From the IMG/VR virus record IMGVR_UViG_3300031787_000005: a DNA stretch of 64,000 nucleotides; one strand, 5' to 3'. The notes beneath the pieces are model-generated. The model searched no databases and had not been told where the DNA came from. It saw nothing but the letters and a program-made list of their open reading frames with translations. Shown piece after piece: positions 44,301 through 57,932 of the stretch; within the stretch, counting starts at the first letter, position 1, and every line of letters starts with the position of its first letter. The translations under genes and the position numbers were made by a program. The stretch comes from a virus.

Positions 44301-47300
44301 CAGAACCTCTTAAAACAGACTCTACAACTGATGTTTGGTTAATAATTTCGTTTGATTCAACTATAAAATCACTACCAGAATATTGATTGGATGTATTGTA
44401 CGGTAGAGTATTTCTGATTATTTCAGTTCCTTTAAAATTGTAATCTTGATTGATAATATAAGTTTCATCTAGCAAATTCGATCTAAAAGAATCCCCAAGA
44501 AAATAAGGAAATACCGGTTCAATTGTATTTGTTGTTTGATTTACTTTTAAAGTTGTAAAATATGCATATGTTCCTAATGGAAATTCTGGTGTCTTACAAA
44601 ATCTTCCATTTGATTCGTCTAAATCCCCAGATTCATTATAGACATAATCTTCAATAAAGAATCCTGCAGAGAATCCAGAAGGTCTATTAGTTATTGAATT
44701 AGTATTTAATACATAACTAGAATTTAATAATCTAACGGAAGAATCATTAACTTGAGGGTTATCATATCCATATGGTCCGTAAATTGGATTTCCATCTAAT
44801 GCCCAACCAATTATAGGTGAGTGATTGGATCCAGTATCACCAAAATATTGAGATCCTATATTTGTAGAGTATCCAACTATACAATATTTCAAATTAGTTA
44901 TTGATCTTTTTAAAATATCAGATCCATATCTAGAAAAAGTATTAACTCTTAAACTTCTAACATTTGGATCTAAAGAAACTTCAGATCCAGCTGATTTTAC
45001 TGTTATGCTAGTTGTATCTTGAAGATAATTTACACCAGGATTTATTACTCTGACTTCAGTAATTGCATTATTGACAATTATTGCTCTTAATTTTGCTCCC
45101 GTTCCTTCGCCACTAACAACAAGATCTGGTGTAGAATAATATTCTCTGCCACCACTTAAAACCTGTACGGAATCTATTTTTCCATTTTTAATATAAGGTT
45201 TTAACTGAGCATCTTTTCCAGTCTTTATTGTAATTAGTGGTTTTTTATGTAAATTTAAAATATTGGACCCATAATTAGTTCCTTTTTCATATAGATATAT
45301 GTCATTTATGACTCCACGAATAATGGGTGTTGCAGTTATGATGCCAGATATACCATCACGATATTTTACATTAACACTAATACTGATCGGTGGATATTGG
45401 AAAACTTGATATCCAGTTCCTTTTGATTGAAATTTAATATAATTCTTCCTTTCGTAATTTGAAGTTATTGTTCCACCAATTCCAGCATCTGCAAGTCTAA
45501 ATTTATTATCAGATAGTTTGATAACCTGATATTGTTTTGCTGTGGATAATCCAGAAATGATTGTTGGGAGAGTTGAACCAAGTCCAACATTTGTAGAATA
45601 TACTATTGTCTCACCATCATTAAATCCATGATTTACGAAATTAATCGTATTGTCACTAGTAGAAATACCAGATGGGAAAACTCTTAATTTTCTATTGGAA
45701 TATCCTTCTCCAGAAGATAATACATCAATACGAGTTACATTATTTGCAGACTCCAATAATCTAAATTTTTGGAACCCAATATTACTTGCAGTTGTAAATC
45801 CAATTGTGTTAATTCCAGAATTAAAATCTTTTTCTGTTCTATAAAGTCTTACAGTTTTTGGACCAGTTACTTGTGCAAAATATACTGAACCATTTTCTAG
45901 ATATTCAGTCTTGATACCAGTAGTATCATTTGATCCAGCAAATGTTCCGATGCTTACTGGTGGGCTTCCATTTTTATCATAAACTAATGCTTGTCCATTT
46001 TTAATATTGTGGTCTTTTATAAAACTTAAATCATCCAATATAACATCTAATCCACCACCCTGAGATGATGGCAAAGCACTAAAATCTAATTCTCTATATC
46101 TTTTTGATGTTATTGGTTTCAATATACATCCAGATCCATTTCCACCAGTAATGGTTACTGATACTGCATCGTCAATATCAAAATCTTGTGGATCCACAAA
46201 TACTTCTTTTACTGATCCAGTAACGACAGGTTGAATAAGTGCGGTAGTTCCAATTCCTGGAGATGAAACTTCAATAAGTGGTGGATTAATTACATCATAA
46301 TTTAAACCAGTATTTAATATGTTTATAGACTCTAAAGGTCCAAAATAAATTCGGTCGTTCGACTTATATGAATTTATTTCTACGCCATTTATCATTATGC
46401 CGACTGTTTCAGCTTCCGTTTTTGTCCTATTAGAACGTTGAATGTCTGGGAATAATGGGAATTTTTTAAGACTCTTTTGTGGTCCTATTTTTAGATTATT
46501 TTGGAAAGATAGTGTAAAAGTATGATTTCCTGTTCCTGGATCTAAAGTTCCAAATTCAATATAATCATCTGATGGAATGAAAGACCTTGAGGTATAAAGT
46601 TTAATCTTATTTGATTCTGTTAAAACTCTAACGTAATAAAGACCTTCATCCAATCCAGGAATAGATTGATTTTCTGGTTTATAGTATACTTCATCACCAG
46701 TTATGAATGGAACACTAGACTGGAATGATAATACAGAATATTTTAGTGATGATGGATCATATTCTTGGATTCTATTACCATTTGCTTCACCTAGAGAAAT
46801 TGATGATAAATTAGTTGTAATTGGATATGATGGTAGAGAATTTGAAGCAACATACATGTATTCATCATTTTCATTATAAACATTTTGAACATCGGATGTG
46901 ATTACATTATTTCCATATTCAATTTGTGCTCCAGAACTTGTTGCTTTATTTAAATTTCTACGGATGTCATACTCTTTAAGTGGATCAACATTAAATCCAG
47001 ATAGATTATTTAAAAGAATTTCTTTCGTTGATTTATTAATGTTAGATACAATTGCTCCAGCATATTCAACGATTTGTGTATTTCTTCTTAGAATTTCAAT
47101 TGTATCTCCAACTTTGAGAGAAGATTTATCTATATCCGAATAGAGTAAAAATGTGCTACCAGATATTCCTTTTACTTGATATCTAACGGAAGTATTGTAT
47201 ATCCAGGTATTAGAAAAAATTTGTTTCTTAGTTTTAAATTGATCGGGATTTTTTATTATTTCTCCCAGGTTTTTGACGTATATTATTTCTCCTTCATCAG

Positions 47301-48528
47301 TAAATGAGATATCGGATACTGGAACAAATTTTGATAAAACGCCAGTAATTCTTACTTCTACTTTTTTTGTTAGATCGCCATCTTCATATCCATACATAAC
47401 CTCATCAAATCTAATATCTGATGCTGGTGATATTGCAGAAGTTATCCCACTACATCCCAAAAATTGATTAATTGTTTTATCAGTGTAGGTTATCGTATTT
47501 CCAGAACAGAATACTGTTCCTGATTTTGGAAACTCAACAGTTGAATCCACACTAATAACTTTTGCCCCTGCAGTAATATTTCCAATTACTTTAGTTTTTC
47601 CTGGAACATTAAATGTTCCTTCAATAAGAGCATTTTCACTAAATCCTACAAATAATGAAAGTTTATAATATACTAGATTATTTTTTGATATAATTTCAAC
47701 TTCAGAGACAGATGCTTTTGTTGCTGAATCAGTTGACTTTCTGATGGTTTGACCAACTAGTTTTAGTGGATCTCCAGAAATTCTTTGCACAAGAAGAGTT
47801 TCTCTTCTAATGTACTCTGCAGATGATGGTTTGATTAAATATTTTTCTAAGTCTACAATTCTTGGAGTTACTCCATATAAAATATTAAAAAGTATTCTAA
47901 ACGACTCTTTTGTACCTTTAGACGCATAGAAAGATCTAGCTTCTTTTATGAAGTTACTTACGTCTAGATTTTGGACAAATGTTAATTCTTCTAATCCAGG
48001 AGTAAGAGAATATTTTACCTTTTTATAAAATTCTTGTAAGAATAAAGCACTGAGATTTTTTACACTAGATCCATCTTCATGAGAAGCAGCTTCTGAAGTG
48101 GAAAAAACTAAGTCATTTCTTTCTAGTTCTTCATAATATGTTGTGATACCACTAAAACCACGAACACAACCAGTGAATGTATTTGTTGTAATTCCAGAAT
48201 ATGTGATAATTTCATCATCAATTTTTAATAGACCCCAATTTAACGGAAATCCTTTTGTACTTTCTACCGAAATTACATCAGATTCGCTTGTTATATCAGA
48301 TTCTAGTGTAGTTTCACCACTAACTACTTCTGGAGTTAAGTTATCAAGTTTTAAATATTGATCTAAATTCTCGACAATATCAATTGAACCTCCAGGAATT
48401 TCCTGAGAAATATAATATTGCTTTAAAAAATCAGCAGCTTTTGGAGATTCTGAAAGAATAAATTCTGGAAGTTGATTTTCTACAATTTGGTGAATTTTTA
48501 CTCTCGTTTCAAATCCCGTTTTTATCAT
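35317..48528 (-). CDS. gp7: Giant baseplate wedge initiator, 4403 aa
   Basis: QLPEF..FLKQYY, FYASKGT, HSPIIGWALDGNPIYGPYG, YYQSLSYTIKS..HTVG; between gp6 and gp8. Confidence 0.85.
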   Translation of the reverse strand: MIKTGFETRVKIHQIVENQLPEFILSESPKAADFLKQYYISQEIPGGSIDIVENLDQYLKLDNLTPEVVSGETTLESDITSESDVISVESTKGFPLNWGLLKIDDEIITYSGITTNTFTGCVRGFSGITTYYEELERNDLVFSTSEAASHEDGSSVKNLSALFLQEFYKKVKYSLTPGLEELTFVQNLDVSNFIKEARSFYASKGTKESFRILFNILYGVTPRIVDLEKYLIKPSSAEYIRRETLLVQRISGDPLKLVGQTIRKSTDSATKASVSEVEIISKNNLVYYKLSLFVGFSENALIEGTFNVPGKTKVIGNITAGAKVISVDSTVEFPKSGTVFCSGNTITYTDKTINQFLGCSGITSAISPASDIRFDEVMYGYEDGDLTKKVEVRITGVLSKFVPVSDISFTDEGEIIYVKNLGEIIKNPDQFKTKKQIFSNTWIYNTSVRYQVKGISGSTFLLYSDIDKSSLKVGDTIEILRRNTQIVEYAGAIVSNINKSTKEILLNNLSGFNVDPLKEYDIRRNLNKATSSGAQIEYGNNVITSDVQNVYNENDEYMYVASNSLPSYPITTNLSSISLGEANGNRIQEYDPSSLKYSVLSFQSSVPFITGDEVYYKPENQSIPGLDEGLYYVRVLTESNKIKLYTSRSFIPSDDYIEFGTLDPGTGNHTFTLSFQNNLKIGPQKSLKKFPLFPDIQRSNRTKTEAETVGIMINGVEINSYKSNDRIYFGPLESINILNTGLNYDVINPPLIEVSSPGIGTTALIQPVVTGSVKEVFVDPQDFDIDDAVSVTITGGNGSGCILKPITSKRYRELDFSALPSSQGGGLDVILDDLSFIKDHNIKNGQALVYDKNGSPPVSIGTFAGSNDTTGIKTEYLENGSVYFAQVTGPKTVRLYRTEKDFNSGINTIGFTTASNIGFQKFRLLESANNVTRIDVLSSGEGYSNRKLRVFPSGISTSDNTINFVNHGFNDGETIVYSTNVGLGSTLPTIISGLSTAKQYQVIKLSDNKFRLADAGIGGTITSNYERKNYIKFQSKGTGYQVFQYPPISISVNVKYRDGISGIITATPIIRGVINDIYLYEKGTNYGSNILNLHKKPLITIKTGKDAQLKPYIKNGKIDSVQVLSGGREYYSTPDLVVSGEGTGAKLRAIIVNNAITEVRVINPGVNYLQDTTSITVKSAGSEVSLDPNVRSLRVNTFSRYGSDILKRSITNLKYCIVGYSTNIGSQYFGDTGSNHSPIIGWALDGNPIYGPYGYDNPQVNDSSVRLLNSSYVLNTNSITNRPSGFSAGFFIEDYVYNESGDLDESNGRFCKTPEFPLGTYAYFTTLKVNQTTNTIEPVFPYFLGDSFRSNLLDETYIINQDYNFKGTEIIRNTLPYNTSNQYSGSDFIVESNEIINQTSVVESVLRGSVDRLDIISAGDNYKIGDSAIFNNEDTSGSGASAQVSLIKGKEITNITTNTLKYQNVILIWKSENEVQGYISTTHTFNQSDNVYLSGISTSLKNVLGKNYKVGITTSQTFLYKAIPSTSIVGVITDIYVSSIPENMNVGDVVKVSGTETMTILNRFDDRKILRVTRNNSGFAHTLSAKVELVPTYFSLPISTPKFESKVNDIVYFNPVESVGVGTSVGFSTSVTYTIGIGELTGTTSIPIQSIRLPNHPFQTNQKVLIKKPPGEGSLFVQKTPNDSPTPILSSGDWEPFYVVKQSDDHIGIVTQVGLTTTTKGLFFANFGTNSFGYAVRSDFTQVTSDVNRVTTLVSLSTSHGLTNGDIINLDVKSNQAVGVGTSTSVRLRYDTIGQRILVNRITFSSSGINTIKDTITINRHGFTNGDKVYYRPVTTVASGLQTGDYYIYVLDENTFNFTETLYDNKIYPPSIVNINSVGGASHTIALVNPQLNIVRNNDIVFDVSDSTLDGYGLKFYYDSAFKNEFISVGNTANFVVSGVGTVGVSGDAKITLRYDTGMPQVFFYALEKSGFISTSDLDVTNASKINYIDSLYNGRYSVFDVAGNNFKISLTKIPESTSYTSTQCESCTYTTFSKTANGPIARLSLTSSGVSYKKLPVINGFNSVNGTGAQIYTASNTIGKIDQVRVIDPGFEYPSDVTLRPQALVPSTFFVLDTNIVKSIDITYGGRYYQSAPDLVLANSDGIAIDNGIITPTIGGSGIGKINIIEAPNGLNSSKHTLFATNNTNSFTISKVVYDRPTGIVTCTIQTPIAGYAQNVVNVGDKIFVEGVEKYETSGNGFNAIDNKFKFYDITAYRNTNPAELEFNLTGITTNAGIAVTTPTFASFVRYEDYPRFDVVTGATKFSIGEKILVFVNNEYIETDLVITEDRTTFIKAVGRYELEIGDLIIGSFSGTRAKVDSFINNNARFEINYSARQDLGWLDNVGKLNEDYQVLPDNDYYQSLSYTIKSPIEFEKLINPVNSLLHTVGLKNFSDTEVKSVSGAGVTVTPVESITTFDFINEDRVDTIYGFDLAVDNNVVQSRSKDIKLRNRKLSGYIECRTNNVLKIDDISSLFSNSRSSLNPYVETIFEDSFARFLIQIIDPATTDIQATEVIVVGGRPSDLVTFEKSSIFTTTNQPVDIEGNVNEYGDKTLRFYPANTTDIDYDIKILKTYFNADTAGIGTINVGFIDLAGSVDVATIGITTQIISTQSNKLESMYVTAEVYDKNNQQIKNIVELYITHDGTNTYQSDYFFDTIAIDNNSYTPIGTFTASLSGGIFALNYQNASYNGEVVVRSRVVGFGTTAVGVGTYRSILNGQIEGTERSFKFESDYVKVSAASTSIFKFDKTEVSTIKSLVRVSYGNTSALHQVLVANNNGNAVITQYPFVSIGSTSGIGTFGIDYSTSPAQLRFYRDPGITASLQISSFNEVIYTESDFSNNYPPIEYGKLRETMELLSYNAVNGSRSNKTSFKLTSDGVPIFSKKFSPSSSIFLNPVTGVFTIEKHFFNTGEKLIYTPGSTFIGIGSTAVGINTSITQAGFSTDILPSEVYAIRIDEDRFRLSTRKSDALAGIYVTFTSLGSGNAHELQMSTKLEKTLITIDGVVQYPLAYTPVNTPLQAGIGESTSVLSLGTIRDFIPDATIKVDDEIMRIINVGFATTSGAQITGFGTFTNIEVTRGYLGSIGTSHGIGSTVRVYSGTYNIDSGSIIYFTSAPTGKGTLEKNSNNVPYPRAVFGGRVYLRKDYSNNRIFDDISTSLSGVGRTYTATVSGLNTTGIQTGSAFLFLNGIFQTPTTANNPDNVYTFKQFDLPVSNIPNPELLPYDNIVQDYSQYAVGYAQSSYIVGTVGISSIIFSGITSSNGQNIISTDDVNQNQLPRGGVIISFGSTQGLGFAPLYPAQIGIVTNASGGISTIVAIGTYSAPTKVLGIVTGSYDNTTGIATFILNGAHNLRVGDPLGLSGLRFSCNSWTGISTFNVTGLVYNRTAGIATITVNGNHNLRAGKYVRLANIILSCPGNPIGYSTTRFPYPAGIGTLGNAYPQSSKNTLEGTYDVYRVIAGTAGTTIVLNVGVSTVNHVYVSGGTATVGVTTNIFPYPGAGPEGGIFRSLVGTGGSTIVVNGGISTIAHTYTGLGSCSVGIEWKDYNYGSGYYGGPVSIAITSPTGNSGVINAVVGAGGTLIFSIANAGTGYAATTTNINIREPSYENLPIVGVSRVGLGSTTDSGLNTLLTLKVGSNDNIAYDGVFYDAANLIESNIQLIAEVAVGRMLAFYPGFSVPNGNAECVDDIKSVLQTITHNLRFGGNDKVWDAANLYKTNPALLYGEEQQSIYAFNQARDMAIQAMRNEAINRGGYTNEIQIFDFTVIGDISGVPGVYSPSDCANVASAIGSFVGIITTTIATGIIPASKTVAPGSLFQVTEFDISRPGYAFRVGDVFKPVGLVTDARLASPISDFSITVLQTYSDQLASWELGEFDYIDSIKPLQNGVRKRFPLAFAGKLLSFETNDQDAESSLIKLENLLLIFINNVLQVPGESYEFTGGTSFTFTQAPEFEDSISIFFYNGTKESDSITIDVPETLKSGDSVKLSAFTGIASSKEQKDRTITLIAASDSIETNLYTGLGIDDDNFRELAWKKQKIDKVINGETIYKTRDSLESQIYPVARIIKDFTPASTELFVDDARFFNYEEDASATIIESVGGLIVYDTGYSTGSMTASINVTNTRVTGLTIVNAGSGYVGNTTTVSITRPRNLGVGIGTTATATVTITNGRLTTPITITNPGLGYTVAPKVLVPTPAPLKERVRNISVIEGFAGIITGISTTTGTGGHSLALKLNLKISSGDFSSLQVGYPICVTDTNVGRGVTSVDSGDASPVGVGTTFLNNIYYVHSITRAATNAEIITNIGSNSNITGLTTSGSFVGRFSWGKLSPIIRGSVAIGVTVSGLRVDSGLSTFPSIERRDYGLRSTGSLRKLLD

Positions 48529-48529
48529 T

Positions 48530-50437
48530 TTATCCCCTCTTTAGATCTCCGTTTGAATAGCTTGATGTTACCTTAAATCCAACACCAGATATTTGTTCAC
48601 CAGATGTGATTGTATCCTTAACCATATTTATGGTGGAATTATCGATGTTAAAACTCAGATATAGGTCTTTCAATCCAATAACATCATTAGACTCTGGATA
48701 CGCCTGAACTTCGACTATATTATTTGCTTCAATTGTAGAAGAAATATTCAACGTGTTTAATAGAATTTCTCCTTTTATGTAATCAACAGATCCTGCAGAT
48801 TTTACTACAACTACAGGTGATCCAACATCATCAGATTCTTTAACGATCGAAATAACTCCCTTTCCACTGCCATCTAAATTACCAGTTGCATCTTTATTGG
48901 GAATATCGGTAAGGTAAACAATATCTGAAGATCCTATGATTGTAAATCCAGTGCTTTTAATATTGTATCCTTTTGGATCAATATGGAATTGATTGCCGAA
49001 ACATAATTCATATTGAGCATACTGATTAACGGATGCTCTCAAGTTTCTTCTCATTTTGACTTTTGTAATGTTTGAAGTTATTGCTTCATCTACAGTGTCA
49101 ATGAGTTTTACGACTTTACTATATCTGAATCTACCACCAAACTTATTCACATCAGATGATTGTGAATAAAGAGTAATCGAATTTAGAATATTTGACTTTA
49201 AATTATCAATACTCGATACTTTTGATGGATTATAATAAACATAAGAATCAATCTCAACAAAGAGTACCTGGAGATCTACAATAGATTGATTGATTCCAGA
49301 CAAACTATAGTTCTTTAACTTCGAAAGAATCTGCCTCTTATCAAAGTCGGAGATAAAGTCTCCATTTTTTGGTTTAATACTAATAATTACATTTCCATAT
49401 TGGGGTGGATCTAACTCCTCTCCACCAACAATAGAAACTGATTCTGTGTTTGGATATATTTCACGAACAATCGATTCATAATCTCTAGCAGTTACGGCAC
49501 GATAATTTGAAGAGTATAGTCTAGGTGCAAAATATTTAATAGAGTCTACACTCTCAATATCACCACCATTAATCGAAGGTTGTGTGGTTGTAACATTTAT
49601 TGAAGCAGATGGCAAAATCACTTCATTTGATGATCCAAGAAGTCTTCCAGAAAAATCAAAACTTCTGGCACCATTACCATCTGCACCATCTGTAACAATA
49701 TATGATGCGCTAATTACGGCATTGTTTTCTGGTTTTTTGCCGAAGATACCATCTCCAAACAATAGTTGATATCTTTCGTCCTTAATCTCTTGAATTAGAT
49801 AAGTCTCAGATGTTGAATTGATATTTAAGATACTTGATGTTAAAGAATATTCTCTACCTTTTCCTAAATCCGCAACAGATTTTACATAAACTGTAATTGT
49901 TGATGTGTCAATATATGCATTATCTAATACAAATTTTTGATCCAAAGATCCATCTACAAGGAATTGATTGACTAAGTATGATCCTTGATAGATTGTGATG
50001 TCTTGGAAAGTCGCAACTCCATTGTTAATGGTCGTTGTTATTGATTCTGGAATCGAAAATAGATACGTCGTATCATTGATGCTTCCTACACACACCAAGC
50101 CCGCCTCTAAGGTGCATGTCGGGGATGTGCTACTAGTTTGTACCTGAAATGAAACAATTGCCTTAGAAGCAGTCCTGGAGCGAGGTACGTACCCAATGTT
50201 TCTCGCAAGCGCAACCACATTCTCTCTGAGAGTTGCAGAATCCAAGAAGGATTCATTCACAATCATATTAGAATTAAAAGCAGTTACGTATGTGTTATAC
50301 GCAAGAATATCAATCAGTACAGAAAGATTAGATCCATCAAAATCAAAATCAGTGAAATTTGAATTTGCCCTAATATAATCTTTAATGGATCTCTTTATGT
50401 CCTCATAATCTAGATTGGTGAATTGTGTAAAAGGCAT
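48530..50437 (-). CDS. gp6: Baseplate wedge subunit
   Basis: LDYEDIK, FDFDGSNLSVLIDILAYNT, FLDSATLRENVV, RAVTARDYE. Confidence 0.95.
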   Translation of the reverse strand: MPFTQFTNLDYEDIKRSIKDYIRANSNFTDFDFDGSNLSVLIDILAYNTYVTAFNSNMIVNESFLDSATLRENVVALARNIGYVPRSRTASKAIVSFQVQTSSTSPTCTLEAGLVCVGSINDTTYLFSIPESITTTINNGVATFQDITIYQGSYLVNQFLVDGSLDQKFVLDNAYIDTSTITVYVKSVADLGKGREYSLTSSILNINSTSETYLIQEIKDERYQLLFGDGIFGKKPENNAVISASYIVTDGADGNGARSFDFSGRLLGSSNEVILPSASINVTTTQPSINGGDIESVDSIKYFAPRLYSSNYRAVTARDYESIVREIYPNTESVSIVGGEELDPPQYGNVIISIKPKNGDFISDFDKRQILSKLKNYSLSGINQSIVDLQVLFVEIDSYVYYNPSKVSSIDNLKSNILNSITLYSQSSDVNKFGGRFRYSKVVKLIDTVDEAITSNITKVKMRRNLRASVNQYAQYELCFGNQFHIDPKGYNIKSTGFTIIGSSDIVYLTDIPNKDATGNLDGSGKGVISIVKESDDVGSPVVVVKSAGSVDYIKGEILLNTLNISSTIEANNIVEVQAYPESNDVIGLKDLYLSFNIDNSTINMVKDTITSGEQISGVGFKVTSSYSNGDLKRG

Positions 50438-50438
50438 T

Positions 50439-50840
50439 TTACCTTGTGCTTTCTAAGATGAATCTAAATTGTTGCTGTGGAAAATCTTGCCCAATAATAT
50501 CGTATTGAATTGCTATTTCAAAAGTATTTTCATTAGGTGAAGGAGTCACATATACTTTTACATTCTCAATTCTTTCCTCATATGTTTTCAATGCCGTCTT
50601 AATTTCTTCTTCAATTAGCAATGCAGAACCAACGTCAACAAAATCAAAAAGCAATTCGTTGACTCTTGAACCAAAATTTGGATTAAAGAACTTTTCGGAA
50701 GGTATTGTTTCAATAATATTTCTCACAGAACGCTTTATTGCAGATTCATTCTTCAAGATCTGTAAATCTTTGGTGACAGGATGAGGCTCAAAGGATAAAC
50801 TAATATCCTTAAATGTTCTCGATATTCTCTCTACTGCCAT
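50439..50840 (-). CDS. gp25: Baseplate wedge gp25-family protein
   Basis: FKDISLSF, AIKRSVRNII..EKFFNPNFGS, YEERI; TAAATA at 50864-50869. Confidence 0.92.
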   Translation of the reverse strand: MAVERISRTFKDISLSFEPHPVTKDLQILKNESAIKRSVRNIIETIPSEKFFNPNFGSRVNELLFDFVDVGSALLIEEEIKTALKTYEERIENVKVYVTPSPNENTFEIAIQYDIIGQDFPQQQFRFILESTR

Positions 50841-53098: not shown

Positions 53099-53127
53099 AT
53101 CATACCTTATTATGTATGAGATGTCAA
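53099..53127 (-). promoter_or_regulatory. Consensus sigma70 promoter TTGACA-17-TATGAT for the glycosyltransferase-like gene
   Basis: -35 at 53127-53122, -10 at 53104-53099. Confidence 0.8.
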
Positions 53128-53297
53128 TTCGTTCGTTCTGTGATGATTACCTCATTCCCATCTAGGGCAATCCGTACTTCCGTATCTTCATACCATTCGA
53201 GTTCATTGATCATCTCTTCAGGTATCGTTATAAAGTACTCCCCCGTAATTGGATCAACCTGTACGGGCACAAATTTATCTCCGGAATTTTTTCTCAT
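53124..53297 (-). CDS. AbrB/MazE-like swapped-hairpin DNA-binding protein, 57 aa
   Basis: YFITIPEEMINELEWYEDTEVRI pattern; start MRKN at 53297. Confidence 0.6.
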   Translation of the reverse strand: MRKNSGDKFVPVQVDPITGEYFITIPEEMINELEWYEDTEVRIALDGNEVIITERTN

Positions 53298-53410
53298 ACT
53301 ATGAAACTTATTTTTAATCTTATATATGGGAAAAAAATTTTTAAGTTGGGCGGAACATTTAGATCGCTTTCGTAACACTTTGTAGGTTACAGGGACCCAT
53401 CGTTTTTATA

Positions 53411-53452
53411 CGGCGGCGCCCCGCCCGAACGGGGGCGGCGGGGGCGCTGCTG
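53411..53452. other. Long GC-rich hairpin at the early/late boundary
   Basis: CGGCGGCGCCC-CGCCC-GAACGG-GGGCG-...-GGGCGCTGCTG inverted repeat; no terminator-oriented U-tract. Confidence 0.6.
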
Positions 53453-53473
53453 CTGCACGAACGCATGAGGGCG

Positions 53474-53671
53474 TCACCCCTGCTGTGTGACCCACCCGCT
53501 GACGGGGCACGGGGTCACATCGGCACGGAAGGTATCCTCAAACTGGGCAGACCACACGGCGGCGGGGTGACCCATGGGAGGGGTTAGGCGGTTAAAGTTG
53601 GTGCCGTCGTTGCGGTAGGCGACCCATTCGGTCTGGCGGTCGGCAAGGCGGGTGGCGGGGGAGAGGCGCAT
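53474..53671 (-). CDS. Early hypothetical protein, 65 aa
   Basis: ORF track; follows the palindrome promoter at 53694-53754. Confidence 0.6.
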   Translation of the reverse strand: MRLSPATRLADRQTEWVAYRNDGTNFNRLTPPMGHPAAVWSAQFEDTFRADVTPCPVSGWVTQQG

Positions 53672-53693
53672 CGGGTGGGTTGCTGTTGAGAGA

Positions 53694-53754
53694 ATTCTAC
53701 AGGGTCAGGAAGGGGGCAGGGTGCCCCCTGTGTGACAGCGCCTCAATCGGCATA
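53694..53754 (-). promoter_or_regulatory. Palindrome-type promoter (dyad 53731-53754, -10 TAGAAT)
   Basis: GCTGTCACA right half, degenerate left half, 31 nt to the -10 box. Confidence 0.6.
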
Positions 53755-53925
53755 GGAGAGCAGGAAGTCCTCCAGAAATTCCCGGGCATCGTCCCCGCTC
53801 ATCTGGGAGATCATTTCACGGGCGATCGTCTCCCAGGAGAACACGTCTGCCAGGTCGGTGATGGCAGCACGGGCATCACGGGCGCTCATGGTACGGCGAT
53901 CGAGCATGGCGTAGGTCAGAGGCAT
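53743..53925 (-). CDS. Early hypothetical protein, 60 aa (MPLTYAMLDRR...)
   Basis: Start chosen downstream of the -10 at 53952-53957; stop inside the next palindrome. Confidence 0.65.
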   Translation of the reverse strand: MPLTYAMLDRRTMSARDARAAITDLADVFSWETIAREMISQMSGDDAREFLEDFLLSYAD

Positions 53926-53951
53926 GGGGTCAGGTCGTTTGATCTGAAAGA

Positions 53952-54011
53952 ATTCTACAGGCAACCCCCCGCCGAATCGGTGAGGGGTGTGCCACCTGTC
54001 AGAGTGTCACC
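53952..54011 (-). promoter_or_regulatory. Palindrome-type promoter (dyad 53988-54011, -10 TAGAAT)
   Basis: TGTGCCACC-TGTCAG-AGTGTCACC; 30 nt to the -10 box. Confidence 0.7.
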
Positions 54012-54144
54012 AGATGATGGGGTTCCCCTGCAGATCGGTTACAGTGCCCGCCTGTTCATCTTGGGCAATTGATTCAAGAATCCGCAGGATTTGCTCTCCA
54101 TTGTTACCTTTCTTCAGGAGAGAGATTGCCAGGGATTGAGTCAT
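54007..54144 (-). CDS. Early hypothetical protein, 45 aa (MTQSLAISLLKKGNNGEQILRILES...)
   Basis: 3' part of a track ORF; stop inside the palindrome. Confidence 0.6.
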   Translation of the reverse strand: MTQSLAISLLKKGNNGEQILRILESIAQDEQAGTVTDLQGNPIIW

Positions 54145-54312
54145 GATAAAAAAGGAAAGTGTACGGGTGGCAGTCTTTAAAGGCGCTGCCATTCCTGGGG
54201 GATTAAAACTTAGGGGTCAGAACCTTAAAGATAACGACCTTACGATTGAAGGGGTGGAGAGTGTAGTTTAGGAGGCGGAGCATTTGTGAAAAGAAAGGGG
54301 TGGACAGAAAGT

Positions 54313-54630
54313 TCAGTTCAGACGCATTCCAGAAAAGAAAGGAATTGTGCCGAACTGAGAGGAAGAAAAGAACCAATCAAAGTTCTTTTGAAATACACGT
54401 TCGTCACCAATTCCGTGTGCAGAAAGAATAGCATTCAGACGGGATTTGGTGGTGTTGGTTTGATGTCCACCATCGAAAAGTTCAATCCAAGTCTCACCAA
54501 TTCGGGCGATCAGATTGCCGTGCAGAAAGACATCAGTAACGTTAGAACATGAGATGACTTCAGTGTTTGCCAGTTTGAAATCTTTGCCAGCGGTGATAGC
54601 GGCATTCATCAGACGTTCGATCTTACGCAT
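54313..54630 (-). CDS. Early hypothetical protein, 105 aa (MRKIERLMNAAI...)
   Basis: ORF track; downstream of the promoter at 54660-54719. Confidence 0.75.
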   Translation of the reverse strand: MRKIERLMNAAITAGKDFKLANTEVISCSNVTDVFLHGNLIARIGETWIELFDGGHQTNTTKSRLNAILSAHGIGDERVFQKNFDWFFSSSQFGTIPFFSGMRLN

Positions 54631-54659
54631 GGTTGGGGTCGGTTGGTTGACTTGAGAGA

Positions 54660-54719
54660 ATAGTAGAACGGATGGGGGGTGGAATCAACTCCCCATGTGA
54701 CACTTCGGGGACTGTCACA
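54660..54719 (-). promoter_or_regulatory. Palindrome-type promoter (dyad 54696-54719, -10 TACTAT)
   Basis: TGTGACACT-TCGGGG-ACTGTCACA; 30 nt to the -10 box. Confidence 0.75.
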
Positions 54720-54876
54720 TCCCGTCAGTGTAGTCTCCGATGATCATGCCATTCTGGCGGACCTGGGCGTACCCGTACTCTTCAGAGAGGGAGAGGCACA
54801 GATCCCAGGCACGATCCTCATCGGTGGTGGTGTTCTCCCAGGGAGCGGAGGGGCAGATCACGTCCAGGCGTTGCAT
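54715..54876 (-). CDS. Early hypothetical protein, 53 aa (MQRLDVICPSAPWENTTTDEDRAWDLCLSLSEEYGYAQVRQNG...)
   Basis: Hand-translated; stop inside the palindrome. Confidence 0.65.
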   Translation of the reverse strand: MQRLDVICPSAPWENTTTDEDRAWDLCLSLSEEYGYAQVRQNGMIIGDYTDGM

Positions 54877-54900
54877 CGTTTCGGTTCGGTTGATGGAATC

Positions 54901-54960
54901 AGTCTACAGGGTCAGTCCCTGATGATGTCGGCGGTGAGTGCCAGTGCGTCAGCTGTCACA
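54901..54960 (-). promoter_or_regulatory. Palindrome-type promoter (dyad 54937-54960, -10 TAGACT)
   Basis: AGTGCCAGT-GCGTCA-GCTGTCACA; 30 nt to the -10 box. Confidence 0.7.
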
Positions 54961-55030
54961 TGGCGGAGCGGTTGCAGGGGGTGCCAGAATATTGTCACCA
55001 GGGCAACCGCTAAGATTGCTTTCCCCAAGG

Positions 55031-55219
55031 TCACAGAATGACGGGGGCAAAAGGTTTGTGAAGGATGCCATAATCTTCGATGGATTGATCTAAGATAGCA
55101 TCGATTGCTTCGTTGATACGCTTCCAGGAATTGATCGGAGCGACAACATCCTGGCAGGTTTTTTTCCAGGATCCGTTAACTTTAACCACAACAGACTTAG
55201 TGAGAGTTTGTTTGATCAT
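55031..55219 (-). CDS. Early hypothetical protein, 62 aa (MIKQTLTKSVVVKVNG...)
   Basis: 3' part of track ORF 55031..55276. Confidence 0.6.
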   Translation of the reverse strand: MIKQTLTKSVVVKVNGSWKKTCQDVVAPINSWKRINEAIDAILDQSIEDYGILHKPFAPVIL

Positions 55220-55259
55220 GGTTTGAAGGCGGTGGGGGGCGTCTCTCCCCCCGATGAAC

Positions 55260-55321
55260 ATAGTATGGCACCCCACAGGGGTCAGATCAATAGGGTGTGT
55301 GCCAGTTCCTCAACTGGCACA
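55260..55321 (-). promoter_or_regulatory. Palindrome-type promoter (dyad 55298-55321, -10 TACTAT)
   Basis: TGTGCCAGT-TCCTCA-ACTGGCACA (perfect arms); 32 nt to the -10 box. Confidence 0.75.
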
Positions 55322-56206
55322 CTGAAAGCGTCCGTTGTTGAAGTTAGCGTTAGAAAAGACCTCACGATTGACCAACTTAAACATACCGAACTGGTTGGTC
55401 ATCACATAACCCTCAGCATCGATTCTGTTGCCGTAGAGGTATGCTGCAGGACCACCATTGCGGCAGAGATAGAGGCAGTCATCTTTGATCGACTTCACCA
55501 ATGCCCACAGACGCAGCAGGTTAGCATCACAATCGAAGTCGTCGGGGTTGATCCCATCACCAGCACGAATGCAGGCGTTGATCTGCTGTTTGATCTTTGC
55601 CGCTTCCTTATCAGTTACAAACTCACAGGCAGTTGACATTTGACGGGCAAAGTCACAAACTTCCTTTACATCAGCAAACGATTCTTGATTGTAAAGAATG
55701 TACGTGTTGGGTTTCACAAACAGGCACGAATCGGTGCTGATCAGATCACCCTCAAGCGGGTGAGCGATAGCATCACGCAGATCAGAATCTGCAGTGTAGA
55801 AGGTATGCGGAGCGATGATGATTTGCTCCTGAATCACCTCAGGGAATTGGTAAGTGATTGTATTAGGAGTGTACTCACAATCACCACCGAAACCAATAAA
55901 ATCGCCTTGAAAGATACCATCTGCACGAGGCAACCAATCAAGACAAGCGTGCAGAATGTTTGCAACCTGCCCTGCATGATTCTGATCGATTTCATCATGA
56001 GAATGATTGATCTTGATTTTAACTTTGTTGAACACAGATTTGGTGCCAACGAAGAACTTACCATTGGCGGGATTGATACCCCAAACGATGGCAGGTGCGC
56101 CGTCAATCTTAACACTCATGGTGCCAGGATTCACGAACCAATCCAGAACAGAAAGATCACCCGTCAGGATGGTATCTTCGGGGTGTTCGAGGTGTGTGTT
56201 TTTCAT
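55310..56206 (-). CDS. Early protein with ATP-dependent ligase/nucleotidyltransferase-like motifs, 298 aa
   Basis: Start MKNTHLEHPED at 56206; SVKIDGAP (KxDG), FQGDF, EGYVM, MFKLV. Confidence 0.6.
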   Translation of the reverse strand: MKNTHLEHPEDTILTGDLSVLDWFVNPGTMSVKIDGAPAIVWGINPANGKFFVGTKSVFNKVKIKINHSHDEIDQNHAGQVANILHACLDWLPRADGIFQGDFIGFGGDCEYTPNTITYQFPEVIQEQIIIAPHTFYTADSDLRDAIAHPLEGDLISTDSCLFVKPNTYILYNQESFADVKEVCDFARQMSTACEFVTDKEAAKIKQQINACIRAGDGINPDDFDCDANLLRLWALVKSIKDDCLYLCRNGGPAAYLYGNRIDAEGYVMTNQFGMFKLVNREVFSNANFNNGRFQCAS

Positions 56207-56210
56207 GCTG

Positions 56211-56272
56211 TTAGTATGGCACGGAATCAGAGGGATCACAAGGGGTCTTGTGCCAGTTCCTCAACTGTCACT
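56211..56272 (-). promoter_or_regulatory. Palindrome-type promoter (dyad 56249-56272, -10 TACTAA)
   Basis: TGTGCCAGT-TCCTCA-ACTGTCACT; 32 nt to the -10 box. Confidence 0.7.
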
Positions 56273-56441
56273 CCTCCAGCAGTTCAGGATAGTATTCTTC
56301 AACCTCTGCAATCAGTTCCTCATCACTATACCCAGAAAGATTTTCTTCGATCTGGTCACCAACAATACGCATCAAATCTTTGGTGGACATGTTATCAAGG
56401 ATGCGGTCAATGTACGCATCCAGAAGTTCTTGGCGGTTCAT
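56268..56441 (-). CDS. Early acidic hypothetical protein, 57 aa (MNRQELLDAYIDRILD...)
   Basis: ATGA overlap with the upstream gene; stop in the palindrome. Confidence 0.7.
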   Translation of the reverse strand: MNRQELLDAYIDRILDNMSTKDLMRIVGDQIEENLSGYSDEELIAEVEEYYPELLEE

Positions 56442-56641
56442 TTCAGAATGTGGCGATAGTTTAGACTTTTGATGCACCAACCATAAGCGGTGGTGATTTC
56501 TTCCACGAGGTCATCTTCATCATCTGCCTCCCAGATTTGACCATAGACTTCACATACAATTTCGTATGCTTCATCTACACTTAATGCTTCATCATCATAA
56601 TCATCAAAATCAAACTCAATGTCGGTGATTTGGAATTGCAT
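56438..56641 (-). CDS. Early acidic hypothetical protein, 67 aa
   Basis: ORF track. Confidence 0.7.
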   Translation of the reverse strand: MQFQITDIEFDFDDYDDEALSVDEAYEIVCEVYGQIWEADDEDDLVEEITTAYGWCIKSLNYRHILK

Positions 56642-56790
56642 CAGTAGGTCACAAGTGCAGCAACTTTATCATACAACTGGGCAACATTTACACCCACGAT
56701 TTCACTCACTTCATCCCAATCTTCATGGAACTCAATGAGATCCAGAAGGGCACGAATCTCGTCTTGAGTGAGAGAAAGAACTTCAGACAT
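56641..56790 (-). CDS. Early acidic hypothetical protein, 49 aa (MSEVLSLTQDEIRALLDLIEFHEDW...)
   Basis: Hand-translated; TGATG coupling. Confidence 0.6.
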   Translation of the reverse strand: MSEVLSLTQDEIRALLDLIEFHEDWDEVSEIVGVNVAQLYDKVAALVTY

Positions 56791-56792
56791 GT

Positions 56793-56921
56793 TCAGTAAT
56801 CGTAGTTAGCGTTCAGGTACTCATTGACATCGAACTTCTCAGTATCACGAAGTTCGGGAATGTCGAGGTCAAAAATCTCACCAGGCATGTCTTGGATTTC
56901 GGACCAGAGTTCATCAAACAT
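56793..56921 (-). CDS. Early acidic hypothetical protein, 42 aa (MFDELWSEIQDMPGEIFDLDIPE...)
   Basis: 3' part of a track ORF, just after the -10 at 56944-56949. Confidence 0.6.
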   Translation of the reverse strand: MFDELWSEIQDMPGEIFDLDIPELRDTEKFDVNEYLNANYDY

Positions 56922-56943
56922 TGTGTGTCTCTCAGGAACAAAC

Positions 56944-57005
56944 GTAGTATGGCACGAATCGGGGGGTCTCACAACCCCCCTTGTGCCACTTCTCAAAGTG
57001 ACCCA
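56944..57005 (-). promoter_or_regulatory. Palindrome-type promoter (dyad 56982-57005, -10 TACTAC)
   Basis: TGTGCCACT-TCTCAA-AGTGACCCA; 32 nt to the -10 box. Confidence 0.65.
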
Positions 57006-57178
57006 TTCTCGTCCAGAATGCCCCAATTAATAGAATTACCGTAGAACCCAATGTATACACGACCAATTGAGAATCCGATGATTTCTTCACACTCATCGTT
57101 CAACTTGGTCATCATATCACGAAAGTCAATGTTGAAGTAGAAGTAATCAGAAATCGCAACAGGAGTGGTGAATTTCAT
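56993..57178 (-). CDS. Early hypothetical protein, 61 aa (MKFTTPVAISDYFYFNIDF...)
   Basis: 3' part of a track ORF; stop in the palindrome spacer. Confidence 0.6.
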   Translation of the reverse strand: MKFTTPVAISDYFYFNIDFRDMMTKLNDECEEIIGFSIGRVYIGFYGNSINWGILDENGSL

Positions 57179-57201
57179 GAGTGTTTCAGGTGAACGAATG
57201 T

Positions 57202-57261
57202 AATGTAGAACGGATCGGGGAGAATGTCTAGGGGGTTTGTGCCAGTTCCCCGACTGGCACA
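57202..57261 (-). promoter_or_regulatory. Palindrome-type promoter (dyad 57238-57261, -10 TACATT)
   Basis: TGTGCCAGT-TCCCCG-ACTGGCACA; 30 nt to the -10 box. Confidence 0.75.
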
Positions 57262-57269
57262 CGAGTTAA

Positions 57270-57404
57270 CTATACAAACTCCGCAAGGTAATAGTCTAAC
57301 GGCAGCTCAAGTTCTGCTGCTTTCTGTTCCCAAGAATCCCATTCTTGCTGGGAAGCATCATTCAGGAAATCTTCCCGAGTATACTCAAATGCAGGACCAC
57401 ACAT
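57270..57404 (-). CDS. Early acidic hypothetical protein, 44 aa (...KAAELELPLDYYLAEFV)
   Basis: 3' part of a track ORF. Confidence 0.6.
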   Translation of the reverse strand: MCGPAFEYTREDFLNDASQQEWDSWEQKAAELELPLDYYLAEFV

Positions 57405-57406
57405 AA

Positions 57407-57565
57407 TCAGATCACCGAAACGTTGACTTCTTTGATGTTCAAACCACAGAGTTGATTGTATACTCGCTTGCTGATAATGTCGCAAGCATTCTTGAGTTTT
57501 GAACGCTCATACCAAATAGTACACAAACCATCGTAAGTTTCAACGCGGATCCTGATGTCTTTCAA
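57407..57565 (-). CDS. Early hypothetical protein, 52 aa (TTG start, KDIRIRVETYDG...)
   Basis: 3' part of a track ORF, downstream of the -10 at 57589-57594. Confidence 0.55.
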   Translation of the reverse strand: MKDIRIRVETYDGLCTIWYERSKLKNACDIISKRVYNQLCGLNIKEVNVSVI

Positions 57566-57588
57566 GGTGAATTCCCGACGACGAATGT

Positions 57589-57648
57589 AGAATATCCCAC
57601 GACGTGGGCAATTGCAACTAGTCTTGTGACAGTTCAAAAAGTGGCACA
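57589..57648 (-). promoter_or_regulatory. Palindrome-type promoter (dyad 57625-57648, -10 TATTCT)
   Basis: TGTGACAGT-TCAAAA-AGTGGCACA; 30 nt to the -10 box. Confidence 0.7.
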
Positions 57649-57695
57649 AGATCGATTGAATTCCGACGATCCACGTGCTAACAGGGAATTATACC

Positions 57696-57749
57696 ATTCT
57701 CAATAAGCGAGACCTTATTGAGAATCAATAATATTATATTATTGAGAAT
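57696..57749. repeat. ATTCTCAATAA inverted-repeat cluster (left)
   Basis: ATTCTCAATAA at 57696, TTATTGAGAAT at 57715 and 57739. Confidence 0.8.
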
Positions 57750-57773
57750 AAGACCAATCTTTAAACTGGCACA

Positions 57774-57932
57774 TCAGAAGATATCGCTGTAATCTTTGAT
57801 GCTAACATTCACATCTTCATCACCTTCTAGGTGTAGGATCTCACGCCAATTGATATCTTCTAGTTCTAGATCATCATAACACATGAGGTCTAGCGTGATA
57901 CGTACCACGCGCTTTGTATGTGTGTTAGGCAT
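57774..57932 (-). CDS. First early gene, 52 aa acidic (MPNTHTKRVVRITLDLMCYDDLELEDINW...)
   Basis: Hand-translated; preceded by a consensus sigma70 promoter. Confidence 0.65.
   Translation of the reverse strand: MPNTHTKRVVRITLDLMCYDDLELEDINWREILHLEGDEDVNVSIKDYSDIF

Follow-up and report, generated by a model that had tools for sequence, protein, structure and literature searches.

Nine copies of a 24-bp palindrome lie between the small genes of one short segment of a T4-like cyanophage genome, and the question raised by this locus is what such a repeated element does there. The segment is part of IMG/VR virus record IMGVR_UViG_3300031787_000005; the window is the whole stretch analysed, 64,000 nucleotides (64 kb) in length, and its phage is a new relative of the freshwater phage S-SRM01, with 76% identity over part of the region. 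We propose that the nine units each combine a host-type promoter with a box for a regulator, likely a host factor, with PlmA as the best candidate. Taken as a whole, this explanation appears to us reasonably probable.

The dyads follow the consensus TGTGMCAGT-N6-ACTGKCACA, which spans 24 bp and is two-fold symmetric. A search of the 64-kb window with TGTGMCANNNNNNNNNNTGKCACA, allowing up to 2 mismatches, recovered nine sites (53731, 53988, 54696, 54937, 55298, 56249, 56982, 57238 and 57625), all where a preliminary description had placed them; the mean chance expectation is 0.84 sites, and 0 of 100 shuffles reached nine. A stricter 18-base pattern with up to 3 mismatches gave 6 sites in the window compared to 0.07 expected. 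The region at 53.7–57.6 kb holds every dyad of the window. Half-sites (up to 1 mismatch) number 31 compared to about 20 in shuffles; the array accounts for 16 of the 31, and beyond it half-sites occur only at chance level in this comparison. Within the window, the promoter-proximal half of the dyad is the better conserved one. In six cases the preceding gene has its stop codon inside the dyad, in agreement with the earlier description (ORF ends 53743, 54007, 54715, 55310, 56268 and 56993), the stop being either the TGA within TGTGACA (dyad positions 3–5) or a TGA in the spacer. The cassettes and the genes they serve are listed below.

53694–53754, minus strand: cassette 1, dyad 53731–53754 (the weakest copy, TATGCCGAT..GCTGTCACA), G/C hairpin, -10 TAGAAT at 53694–53699, without a -35; heads ORF 53474–53671, and the spacer contains the stop of ORF 53743–53925.
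53952–54011, minus strand: cassette 2, dyad 53988–54011, G/C hairpin, -10 TAGAAT at 53952–53957, without a -35; heads ORF 53743–53925, and the distal arm contains the stop of ORF 54007–54192.
54660–54719, minus strand: cassette 3, dyad 54696–54719, -35-like TTGATT, 17-nt spacer, -10 TACTAT; heads the Kyano_Gp96 gene 54313–54630, and the dyad contains the stop of ORF 54715–54876.
54901–54960, minus strand: cassette 4, dyad 54937–54960, -10 TAGACT, without a -35; heads ORF 54715–54876 (phrog_17176).
55262–55321, minus strand: cassette 5, perfect dyad 55298–55321, -35-like TTGATC, -10 CATACT at 55262–55267; heads ORF 55031–55261, and the spacer contains the TGA of the DUF6267 gene (protein end ..CAS-stop).
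56213–56272, minus strand: cassette 6, dyad 56249–56272, -35-like TTGTGA, -10 CATACT; heads the DUF6267 gene 55310–56206, and the distal arm contains the stop of the DUF7326 gene.
56946–57005, minus strand: cassette 7, dyad 56982–57005, G6..C6 hairpin around a -35-like TTGTGA, -10 CATACT; heads four genes (56793–56921, 56641–56790, 56438–56641 and 56268–56441), and the spacer contains the stop of ORF 56993–57178.
57202–57261, minus strand: cassette 8, perfect dyad 57238–57261, -35-like TAGACA (5 of 6), -10 TACATT; heads ORF 56993–57178.
57589–57648, minus strand: cassette 9, dyad 57625–57648, -35-like TTGCAA, -10 TATTCT at 57589–57594; heads ORFs 57407–57570 and 57270–57404.
53474–57649, minus strand: the run of about 15 small genes served by the cassettes.

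The gene run lies upstream of the baseplate wedge genes gp25 and gp6 (48530–50840), and its families include Kyano_Gp96, DUF6267, DUF7326 and several PHROG families without assigned function. In cassette 6, the ATG follows the -10 hexamer by just 6 nt, so that a leaderless transcript is likely.

The geometry of the cassettes fits promoters. On the minus strand, the distance from the dyad end to a -10-like hexamer (TAGAAT, TAGACT, TACTAT, CATACT, TACATT or TATTCT) is 30 nt in eight of the nine cassettes and 31 nt in the other, in line with the 30 to 32 nt first claimed. The claim that none has a -35 did not hold: in six of the nine, a TTG-type -35-like hexamer (TTGTGA, TTGATC, TTGATT, TAGACA or TTGCAA, with 4–5 of 6 matches to TTGACA) stands exactly 7 nt past the dyad and is separated from the -10 by 17 nt, and only the cassettes at 53731, 53988 and 54937 are without one. 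A generic sigma-70 scan flags cassette 8 alone among the nine. The same arrangement emerges from a set of 112 unique dyads among the IMG/VR matches listed, a test that is free of orientation bias. In these, TATAAT-like hexamers (at least 5 of 6) give 86 hits at offsets 28–31 past the dyad compared to a background of about 2 hits per offset elsewhere, and the dyad-to--10 distance is constant within 1–2 nt; a TTG occurs at offset 7 in 54 of the 112, and a TTGACA-like hexamer in 29. With a transcription start about 7 nt past the -10, the box would span about -66 to -43, with its centre near -54.5. The dyad behaves like a protein site upstream of a core promoter, and the earlier reading of the units as activator-dependent promoters is borne out to the extent that factor-dependent transcription fits, especially for the three cassettes that lack a -35.

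The unit is not peculiar to this phage. Among the matches listed, more than 120 IMG/VR contigs carry the exact dyad at this spacing from the promoter, and the unit is present in S-SRM01, Syn9 and other records too, which does not support the proposal of a new regulon of this phage; the succession of dyad, promoter, ORF and dyad is a general feature of related phages too. In long or complete cyanophage records, 15, 10, 10 and 7 dyad copies were found with up to 2 mismatches, and a fifth record, 73% complete, has 1 copy; a reversed control pattern gave 0 matches in the same five records. The copies are clustered, and those of S-SRM01 include the syntenic small-gene region. In Syn9 just 5 matches appear when up to 3 mismatches are allowed, one of them between gp72 and gp73.

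The same box also stands before host genes. Exact dyad matches number 68 in 185,579 species genomes, 14 of them cyanobacterial, and at 5 of 13 cyanobacterial loci the Cyano-1 RNA (RF01701) starts exactly 40 nt past the dyad end. A dyad with up to 6 mismatches occupies a fixed position at 22 of 33 Cyano-1 loci compared to 2 of 164 control windows. The full phage-type dyad before Cyano-1/Yfr2 genes is found outside the picocyanobacteria. In the sampled host family (that of G093), presumably the Cyanobiaceae, the half-site (A/G)GTG(A/C)CAGT(T/C) lies at -61/-62 of the sRNA start in most loci of 20 Synechococcus-size genomes, and the distal half-site of the yfr2 promoters is the better conserved one, opposite to the window. 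Phage-type dyads in 121 genomes of this family amount to 21 sites in 16 genomes compared to 9 control sites; at least 2 of the 21 are coding-sequence coincidences, and none lies beside Cyano-1. The abutting host pair ACTGKCAC(A)(T)GTGMCAGT fits the verbal description of CGRE1 (21–22 nt, GTTG/GTTA flanks 13–14 nt apart), which in marine picocyanobacteria is where the GntR regulator PMM1637/PlmA acts at yfr2 promoters (PMC6191309). In that study, pull-down and gel-shift assays showed PMM1637 binding to the promoter of yfr2 (Lambrecht et al. 2018, PMC6191309). None of the papers searched links CGRE1 to phages.

A palindrome at gene ends could also act in RNA, as a hairpin by which the preceding gene's transcript is terminated, processed or stabilised at its 3′ end, with the constant distance to the next promoter reflecting only tight packing. 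The stop of the upstream gene does lie inside the dyad in 38 of 88 cases and within 26 nt upstream in 31 more, perfect copies fold as 9–11-bp stems, and cyanobacteria are not known to have Rho, so that hairpins matter for termination. However, the arms keep sequence rather than pairing. Of 100 oriented dyads, 51 have complementary bases at M and K (52.8 expected under independence) and 49 do not, so that roughly one copy in two has a mismatch in the middle. This lack of covariation fits a double-stranded DNA protein site instead of a hairpin. Furthermore, no T-run was found after the dyad stems, the fold z-scores given below are inconsistent, a terminator does not need spacing constant within 1–2 nt, and in hosts the box also stands before sRNA genes, at places without a gene end. 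We regard the RNA reading as very unlikely. The G/C-run stems described in the gap between dyad and promoter are present in some cassettes but not all (3–4 of the nine, and 21 of 100 metagenomic copies), with fold z-scores of -2.2 to -3.0 in four cassettes and -0.4 to -1.3 in five. Equally improbable is a primarily recombinational role, in which the repeats would be PeSL-like or attC-like sites for module excision and insertion. The comparison of cassette order called for in the preliminary description showed that module order does vary among relatives: the Kyano_Gp96 gene precedes DUF6267 in nine contigs and follows it here and in three others, and the 42-aa gene E and the B/C pair also change place. 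Dyads often mark an edge of a homology block (e.g., 55298–56271), and PeSLs of coliphages RB49/phi1 form mini-circles (PMC2839356). Shuffling of modules in the manner of PeSLs is partly supported; recombination at the dyads themselves may occur, but the closest relatives found are only 70–90% identical, too distant for junctions to be placed, and block ends at gene borders are expected in any case. No integrase or site-specific recombinase appeared in a general scan of the ORFs, and the annotation of the S-SRM01 region holds an HNH endonuclease only. The likeness to integron cassettes was not sustained, as attC features are absent, the cassettes carry promoters of their own, and what the arms conserve is sequence, not structure. 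The close association of the dyad with promoter hexamers, and with the promoters of host sRNAs, indicates a transcriptional role.

As a rival to a host factor's site, the box may be the operator of a phage-encoded or virion-delivered regulator, for example a repressor closing early cassettes once middle transcription begins, with the likeness to yfr2 sites due to convergence or old capture. Phage copies of the dyad keep much closer to the consensus than those of the host family, in which this arrangement is rare; the copies are restricted to phage hyperplastic regions; and the array adjoins a small ORF (53124–53378) with a weak AbrB/MazE-type DNA-binding domain (Pfam E 6.7e-4, below the curated cut-off), whose S-SRM01 homologue is annotated as a DNA-binding domain protein. 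Nevertheless, no candidate is established as co-occurring with the dyad, activation of first-firing promoters would require a pre-made protein, and the identical box and spacing before sRNA genes in phage-free cyanobacterial loci are difficult to account for without a host factor. A domain search found no GntR-type domain encoded in five dyad-bearing phage genomes, so the factor, if a GntR protein, would be the host's. We consider a phage regulator unlikely, and the half-site common to the phage box and cyanobacterial Yfr2 promoters suggests a host one. PlmA is the best candidate because cyanobacteria put the same box or half-sites, equally far from the start, before Yfr2/Cyano-1 and PMM1637 binds the yfr2 site. 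The host arrangement differs, however, and dyads are barely enriched in the host family, so that binding of PlmA to the phage form is not guaranteed; the exact dyad is present in Acidobacteriota too, which implies that other proteins are able to use such a site. The identification with host PlmA itself (PMM1637 in Prochlorococcus) is tentative, a serious possibility somewhat short of probable.

In the host-regulator explanation that we prefer, the cassettes would belong to a class found ahead of small accessory genes in the hyperplastic regions of T4-like cyanophages (Kyanoviridae). That each is a promoter plus a protein site is highly probable. The core promoter appears to be host-type (SigA/sigma-70-like), with a -10 always and a TTG-type -35 in part, and the 24-bp box would be bound as double-stranded DNA by a dimeric or higher-order regulator deciding whether and when host RNA polymerase fires these promoters, which may be active early in this phage. 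This regulator is more probably a host protein than not, the cyanobacteria-specific GntR-family PlmA being the leading candidate. Because they are repeats of about 60 bp at gene borders, the cassettes probably also serve as homology patches for module shuffling, a role that would be a by-product. Of the initial interpretation, the promoter cassettes, their fit to factor-dependent transcription and the variable module order are supported, but the new regulon and the CRP and integron/attC analogies are not.

Several known systems resemble the array. A conserved novel regulatory element, which we take to be the dyad cassette, reportedly controls early genes of T4-like cyanophages (Syn9, P-TIM40) in the work of Doron et al. 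in 2016 and is said to be abundant in genomes and metagenomes. The present cassettes have a conserved upstream box and a -10 before small hyperplastic-region genes, and such units occur in Syn9 itself, although the five looser matches there suggest that the Syn9 version may be less strict. CGRE1 has in common with the phage box a half-site of 9–10 nt, (T)GTGMCAGTT plus its complement, and a distal half-site at nearly the phage distance from the -10 and RNA start. As reconstructed, however, CGRE1 is an everted abutting pair, AACTGKCAC[A]TGTGMCAGTT, of 21–22 nt with its near edge at about -55 to -57, whereas the phage box is an inverted pair with a 6-nt spacer that reaches about -43, the half-site order being opposite.

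In the CRP family, the CRP site is TGTGA-N6-TCACA, and cyanobacterial NtcA recognises GTA-N8-TAC at -41.5. The outer TGTG...CACA letters and an upstream box able to replace the -35 are similar, but the analogy drawn from the CRP-like arms fails on spacing (TGTG and CACA blocks 16 nt apart, not 8) and on position (centre near -54.5, not -41.5 or -61.5), and the conserved inner CAGTT..AACTG has no CRP counterpart. The promoter-early stem-loops (PeSLs) of RB49/phi1, T4/PST and KVP40/nt-1 (Arbiol et al. 2010, PMC2839356; Comeau et al. 2014, PMC4122927) are likewise repeated intergenic units, with a sigma-70-type early promoter and a G-run/C-run stem-loop between or over the promoter boxes, concentrated in hyperplastic regions beside ORFans and with module order varying among relatives. 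They differ in having an AT-rich upstream region, the conserved 24-bp dyad being found only here, where the G/C stem is limited to the minority of copies counted above. Finally, T4 middle promoters follow the same logic, pairing a -10 with an upstream box for a specific factor. There the MotA box TGCTT, at -30, takes the place of the -35 and depends on the phage proteins MotA and AsiA, which are absent in cyanomyoviruses (PMC2984593), whereas the box described here lies upstream of a retained -35 position.

The long ORFs of the window all lie on the minus strand and include the following features.

35317-48528, minus strand, giant ORF
26619-33728, minus strand, giant ORF
48530-50437, minus strand, baseplate wedge gene gp6
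50439-50840, minus strand, baseplate wedge gene gp25

The best nucleotide match was S-SRM01, a freshwater Synechococcus phage of the Kyanoviridae, with 76% identity over 26% of the 50-60 kb region, and the nucleotide search returned no database record that covers this region. Judged by sequence, the window is therefore a new, S-SRM01-like member of the T4-like cyanophages. The dyad array is located in a hyperplastic stretch of small genes that immediately precedes the baseplate genes in transcriptional order, and S-SRM01 has a small-gene region in synteny with it. Its ORFs match cyanophage families of unknown function only (Kyano_Gp96, DUF6267, DUF7326 and several PHROGs). Rfam gave no RNA family within the window; therefore, no copy of the cyanobacterial sRNA Yfr2 is carried by the phage here. 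The cassette array (53200-57600) also forms a G+C-rich island, with 45-62% G+C in 400-bp windows compared to 30-37% in the structural region. Contigs sharing array modules have an overall G+C of 41-51%, and the array block may come from a higher-G+C cyanophage lineage.

A relaxed pattern for the 24-bp palindrome TGTGMCAGT-N6-ACTGKCACA recovered exactly the nine dyads of the preliminary description (53731, 53988, 54696, 54937, 55298, 56249, 56982, 57238 and 57625) and none other in 64 kb, against 0.84 expected; a strict pattern found six, against 0.07 expected. Each dyad heads a minus-strand cassette, numbered 1 to 9 by rising coordinate, and all nine carry a -10-like hexamer downstream on the coding (minus) strand, at a gap of 30 nt (31 in one cassette), as had been proposed. 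The accompanying claim that no -35 is present did not hold. Six of the nine cassettes have a -35-like hexamer (TTGTGA twice, TTGATC, TTGATT, TAGACA and TTGCAA) exactly 7 nt past the dyad, with a 17-nt spacer to the -10, and nothing -35-like was found at that position for dyads 53731, 53988 and 54937. One cassette of nine passes a 9-of-12 consensus sigma-70 scan, and the promoter hexamers of metagenomic copies are nearer to consensus than those of the window. G/C stems, described as often filling the gap between dyad and -10, form strong hairpins in cassettes 1, 2 and 7, and the remaining cassettes lack them; a strong G/C hairpin also follows the -10 of cassette 5. The six stop codons noted within dyads are indeed there, with the TGA either built into TGTGACA or placed in the spacer.

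The exact 24-bp dyad occurs in more than 120 IMG/VR contigs, which is a lower bound. Both flanks of the 112 unique dyads among the matches listed were pooled without choosing an orientation. TATAAT-like hexamers peaked sharply at offsets 28-31 (86 matches, over a background of about 2 per offset), and at offset 7 after the dyad TTG was present in 54 of these 112 dyads and a TTGACA-like hexamer in 29. The unit can therefore be written as dyad, 7 nt, -35, 16-17 nt and -10, a spacing that places the dyad at about -66 to -43. Genome-wide counts were taken from relatives. At up to 2 mismatches the counts were 15, 10, 10 and 7 in phage records that are long or complete and 1 in a fifth, 73%-complete record, the copies being clustered in limited regions; a reversed control pattern gave 0 matches in the five phage records scanned. 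In S-SRM01, four of seven dyads fall in the region syntenic with the array of the window, and Syn9 has five dyads when 3 mismatches are allowed, including one in the gp72-gp73 interval. Furthermore, the stop codon of the upstream ORF begins inside the dyad in 38 of 88 oriented metagenomic copies among the matches listed, at dyad position 3 (16 cases) or 10-14 (22 cases), so that the proposed unit of dyad, -10, ORF and dyad is a trait of the family. Since the same cassette type is found in these IMG/VR contigs, S-SRM01 and Syn9, the suggestion of a possible new regulon has to be given up. Collectively, these results confirm the array and assign it to a cassette type that is widespread in cyanophages, with a host-type promoter behind a conserved, predicted protein-binding dyad. 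The earlier reading of these promoters as activator-dependent is reasonable.

A palindrome of this kind could also act as an RNA hairpin or an intrinsic terminator. The sole terminator-like match within a cassette is the G/C stem downstream in cassette 2 (53957-53972), where the -10 box itself makes up the "tail". None of the nine dyads in the window is followed by a T-run, and fold z-scores of the nine cassettes were inconsistent, ranging from -0.4 to -3.0. The arms have two degenerate positions, and the search pattern admitted every one of the four base combinations there; the two positions were complementary in 51 and non-complementary in 49 of 100 oriented copies among the matches listed, where 52.8 complementary copies would be expected if the positions were independent. 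Selection acts on the sequence of the arms and not on their pairing. The hairpin and terminator readings were rejected on these grounds, and the lack of covariation and T-runs together with the inconsistent folding fits a predicted protein that reads the dyad half-site by half-site in duplex DNA.

Several other elements adjoin the cassettes. A lone perfect half-site, ACTGGCACA, stands at 57765-57773 (minus strand) directly after the stop codon of the ORF at 57774-57932. Past it comes an AT-rich stretch in which TTCTCAATAA is present three times, twice in direct and once in inverted orientation, together with an extended -10, TGGTATAAT, whose hexamer is at 57686-57691 (minus strand). This stretch (within 57650-57775), conserved in two contigs (L113 and L020), looks like a different type of promoter or operator reading into cassette 9. 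A compressed dyad variant, GGTGCCAGAATATTGTCACC, with half-sites about 4 nt closer, is found at 54980-54999, 20 nt upstream (minus strand) of the dyad at 54937-54960, in the gap after the ORF at 55031-55261. The 84-aa ORF at 53124-53378 (minus strand), which adjoins the array, could encode a phage regulator: it matches an AbrB/MazE-type (SpoVT) DNA-binding domain weakly (E 6.7e-4, short of the Pfam cut-off), and a DNA-binding domain is also named in the annotation of its counterpart in S-SRM01. The DUF6267 protein (55310-56206, minus strand, 298 aa) contains VKIDGAP, a string that resembles motif I (KxDG) of ligases and other nucleotidyl transferases. Its mRNA is probably leaderless, because the ATG lies 6 nt past the -10 hexamer; the same layout is seen in relatives.

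Outside phages, the exact dyad had 68 occurrences in 185,579 species genomes, 14 of them cyanobacterial and about 17 in Acidobacteriota. The Acidobacteriota matches (loci L122-L177; Pyrinomonadaceae, Acidobacteriaceae and Bryobacteraceae) are nearly all symmetric, TGTGACAGT-N6-ACTGTCACA, and mostly intergenic, and may represent an unrelated regulon with the same box. At 5 of 13 cyanobacterial loci, the Cyano-1 (Yfr2) RNA (RF01701, Rfam) begins exactly 40 nt past the dyad, the same spacing as in the phage cassettes. A set of 150 cyanobacterial genomes supplied 33 Cyano-1 loci; 22 of these had a dyad with up to 6 mismatches at a fixed position, compared to 2 of 164 control windows. Genomes of Prochlorococcus size have TGTGACAGTT in a constant position, frequently abutted upstream by ACTGKCACA. 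In most of 20 loci from genomes of Synechococcus/Cyanobium size, the best inverted match starts between -60 and -63 relative to the RNA start; its first half-site, (A/G)GTG(A/C)CAGT(T/C), can be recognised, and the partner is degenerate or, in some loci, abuts upstream. The half-sites (T)GTGMCAGTT and AACTGKCAC(A) are common to the phage dyad and to Cyano-1 upstream regions in genomes of both size classes.

CGRE1, the site of the GntR regulator PMM1637/PlmA in yfr2 promoters, was described as a 21-22 nt element with inverted GTTG/GTTA flanks 13-14 nt apart and its near edge 55-57 nt upstream (PMC6191309). When CGRE1 was re-derived from regions upstream of Cyano-1 in the host family (taken as Cyanobiaceae; 40 regions), it came out as an everted pair of the same half-sites, and the abutting pair at host-family loci fits the verbal description of CGRE1. 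This everted form was seen in host loci only, and the phage box has the opposite half order and a 6-nt spacer. The distal half-site lies at -61/-62 in the host family and at -64 in phages and other cyanobacteria; the near edge of the published CGRE1 is at -55 to -57, and that of the phage box is closer to the start, at about -43. By comparison of these sites, the half-site is shared between phage and host family and its distal copy has a similar position, with the arrangement everted in the latter. In 121 host-family genomes, 21 phage-type dyads were counted against 9 sites for the control pattern, which is hardly an enrichment. No Cyano-1 gene adjoins any of the 21 in these genomes, and two are coding sequence of a LysR-type protein. 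One host-family MAG, G163, has four phage-type dyads on the small contigs C28, C51 and C70, which are probably cyanophage contigs binned with the host. In some Synechococcus-size marine genomes (loci L206, L268 and L273, the last from G164a), the core promoter of Cyano-1 is overlain by a perfect everted pair, ACTGGCAC-N-GTGMCAGT, which lies at -32/-33 relative to the RNA start; L206 and L268 have a weaker inverted dyad at -60 as well, an arrangement that could provide repression and activation geometry at one sRNA gene.

T4-like cyanophages launch their programme without Alt, Mod, MotA and AsiA of T4 (PMC2984593). Host PlmA is a testable candidate for the binder of the phage dyad. A phage-encoded GntR regulator was rejected, as no GntR domain is encoded in five dyad-bearing phage genomes. 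Binding of PMM1637 has been published only for the MED4 yfr2 and yfr4 promoters (PMC6191309), and our literature search found no link of CGRE1 to phages. PlmA is a GntR regulator tied to the PII-PipX nitrogen/carbon sensor; nitrogen starvation and high light are the conditions in which it induces Yfr2. As a caveat to this candidate, the phages have retained the inverted arrangement, which corresponds to the Yfr2 promoters of cyanobacteria at large (Cyano-1 genes outside picocyanobacteria) and not to the CGRE1 form of their own host family. A tentative reading, which we consider rather doubtful although far from negligible, is that T4-like cyanophages wire their first genes to the host PlmA-Yfr2 stress circuit. 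The dyad would then be a near-consensus PlmA "super-site" gating early transcription by the metabolic state of the host, and PlmA could also be titrated off its targets by the 7-15 copies of the site that each genome carries, a number that replication would raise further. Involvement of a host factor would link early phage expression to the nitrogen/carbon and light status of the phototrophs that are most abundant in marine and fresh water. With a conserved box and a named cyanobacteria-specific candidate binder, the onset of the T4-like cyanophage programme becomes testable. Taken by itself, the window adds one more ordinary case of a widespread cassette type, and its dyad cassettes aid the annotation of promoters and gene starts in a new S-SRM01-like phage.

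Compared to CRP and NtcA sites (TGTGA-N6-TCACA or GTA-N8-TAC, centred at -41.5 or -61.5), the phage box differs in spacing and is centred at about -54.5, so that the CRP analogy drawn from the outer arms was rejected on spacing. A sigma-54-like reading (TGGCAC) was likewise rejected on spacing and because cyanobacteria are not known to have sigma-54. The abstract of Doron et al. 2016 reportedly describes a novel element that regulates early genes and is conserved among T4-like cyanophages, where it is abundant. The dyad is likewise conserved and abundant, in IMG/VR contigs, Syn9 and S-SRM01, and the cassette unit of the window is probably this early-gene element. A literature search with half-site strings returned primers only, the papers found to cite Doron et al. 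2016 do not describe the motif, and the comparison of 16 genomes by Sullivan et al. 2010 makes no mention of the dyad.

The repeats had also been suggested to mediate gene shuffling, in analogy to integron cassettes and to the promoter-early stem-loop (PeSL) cassettes of T4-type phages. When 18 window genes were mapped onto 24 related contigs, the part concerning gene order stood: Kyano_Gp96 precedes DUF6267 in nine contigs and follows it in the window and three others, and a 42-aa gene (E) at 56793-56921 and a gene pair (B/C) at 57270-57570 also shift place across the 24 contigs. Homology blocks often span dyad to dyad, e.g., 55298-56271, and the relatives are only 70-90% identical. Alignment end-points were set aside as evidence of recombination at dyads, since gene borders explain the block ends equally well. 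Nothing supports an integron-like mechanism. Integrons have an integrase with attI, promoterless cassettes, and attC sites with conserved pairing and extrahelical bases, whereas each unit of the window has its own promoter, its arms are conserved in sequence without covariation, and general annotation found no recombinase among the ORFs scanned. PeSL cassettes (PMC2839356, PMC4122927) combine a sigma-70-like early promoter with a stable G/C stem-loop that acts as a terminator; for the dyad units, a G/C stem is present in some cassettes of the window and in 21 of 100 metagenomic copies among the matches listed, and no T-runs follow. The PeSL analogy holds for architecture and genomic setting, as both are found in hyperplastic locations with flanking modules that differ in presence and order among relatives, and recombination at the dyads is plausible.
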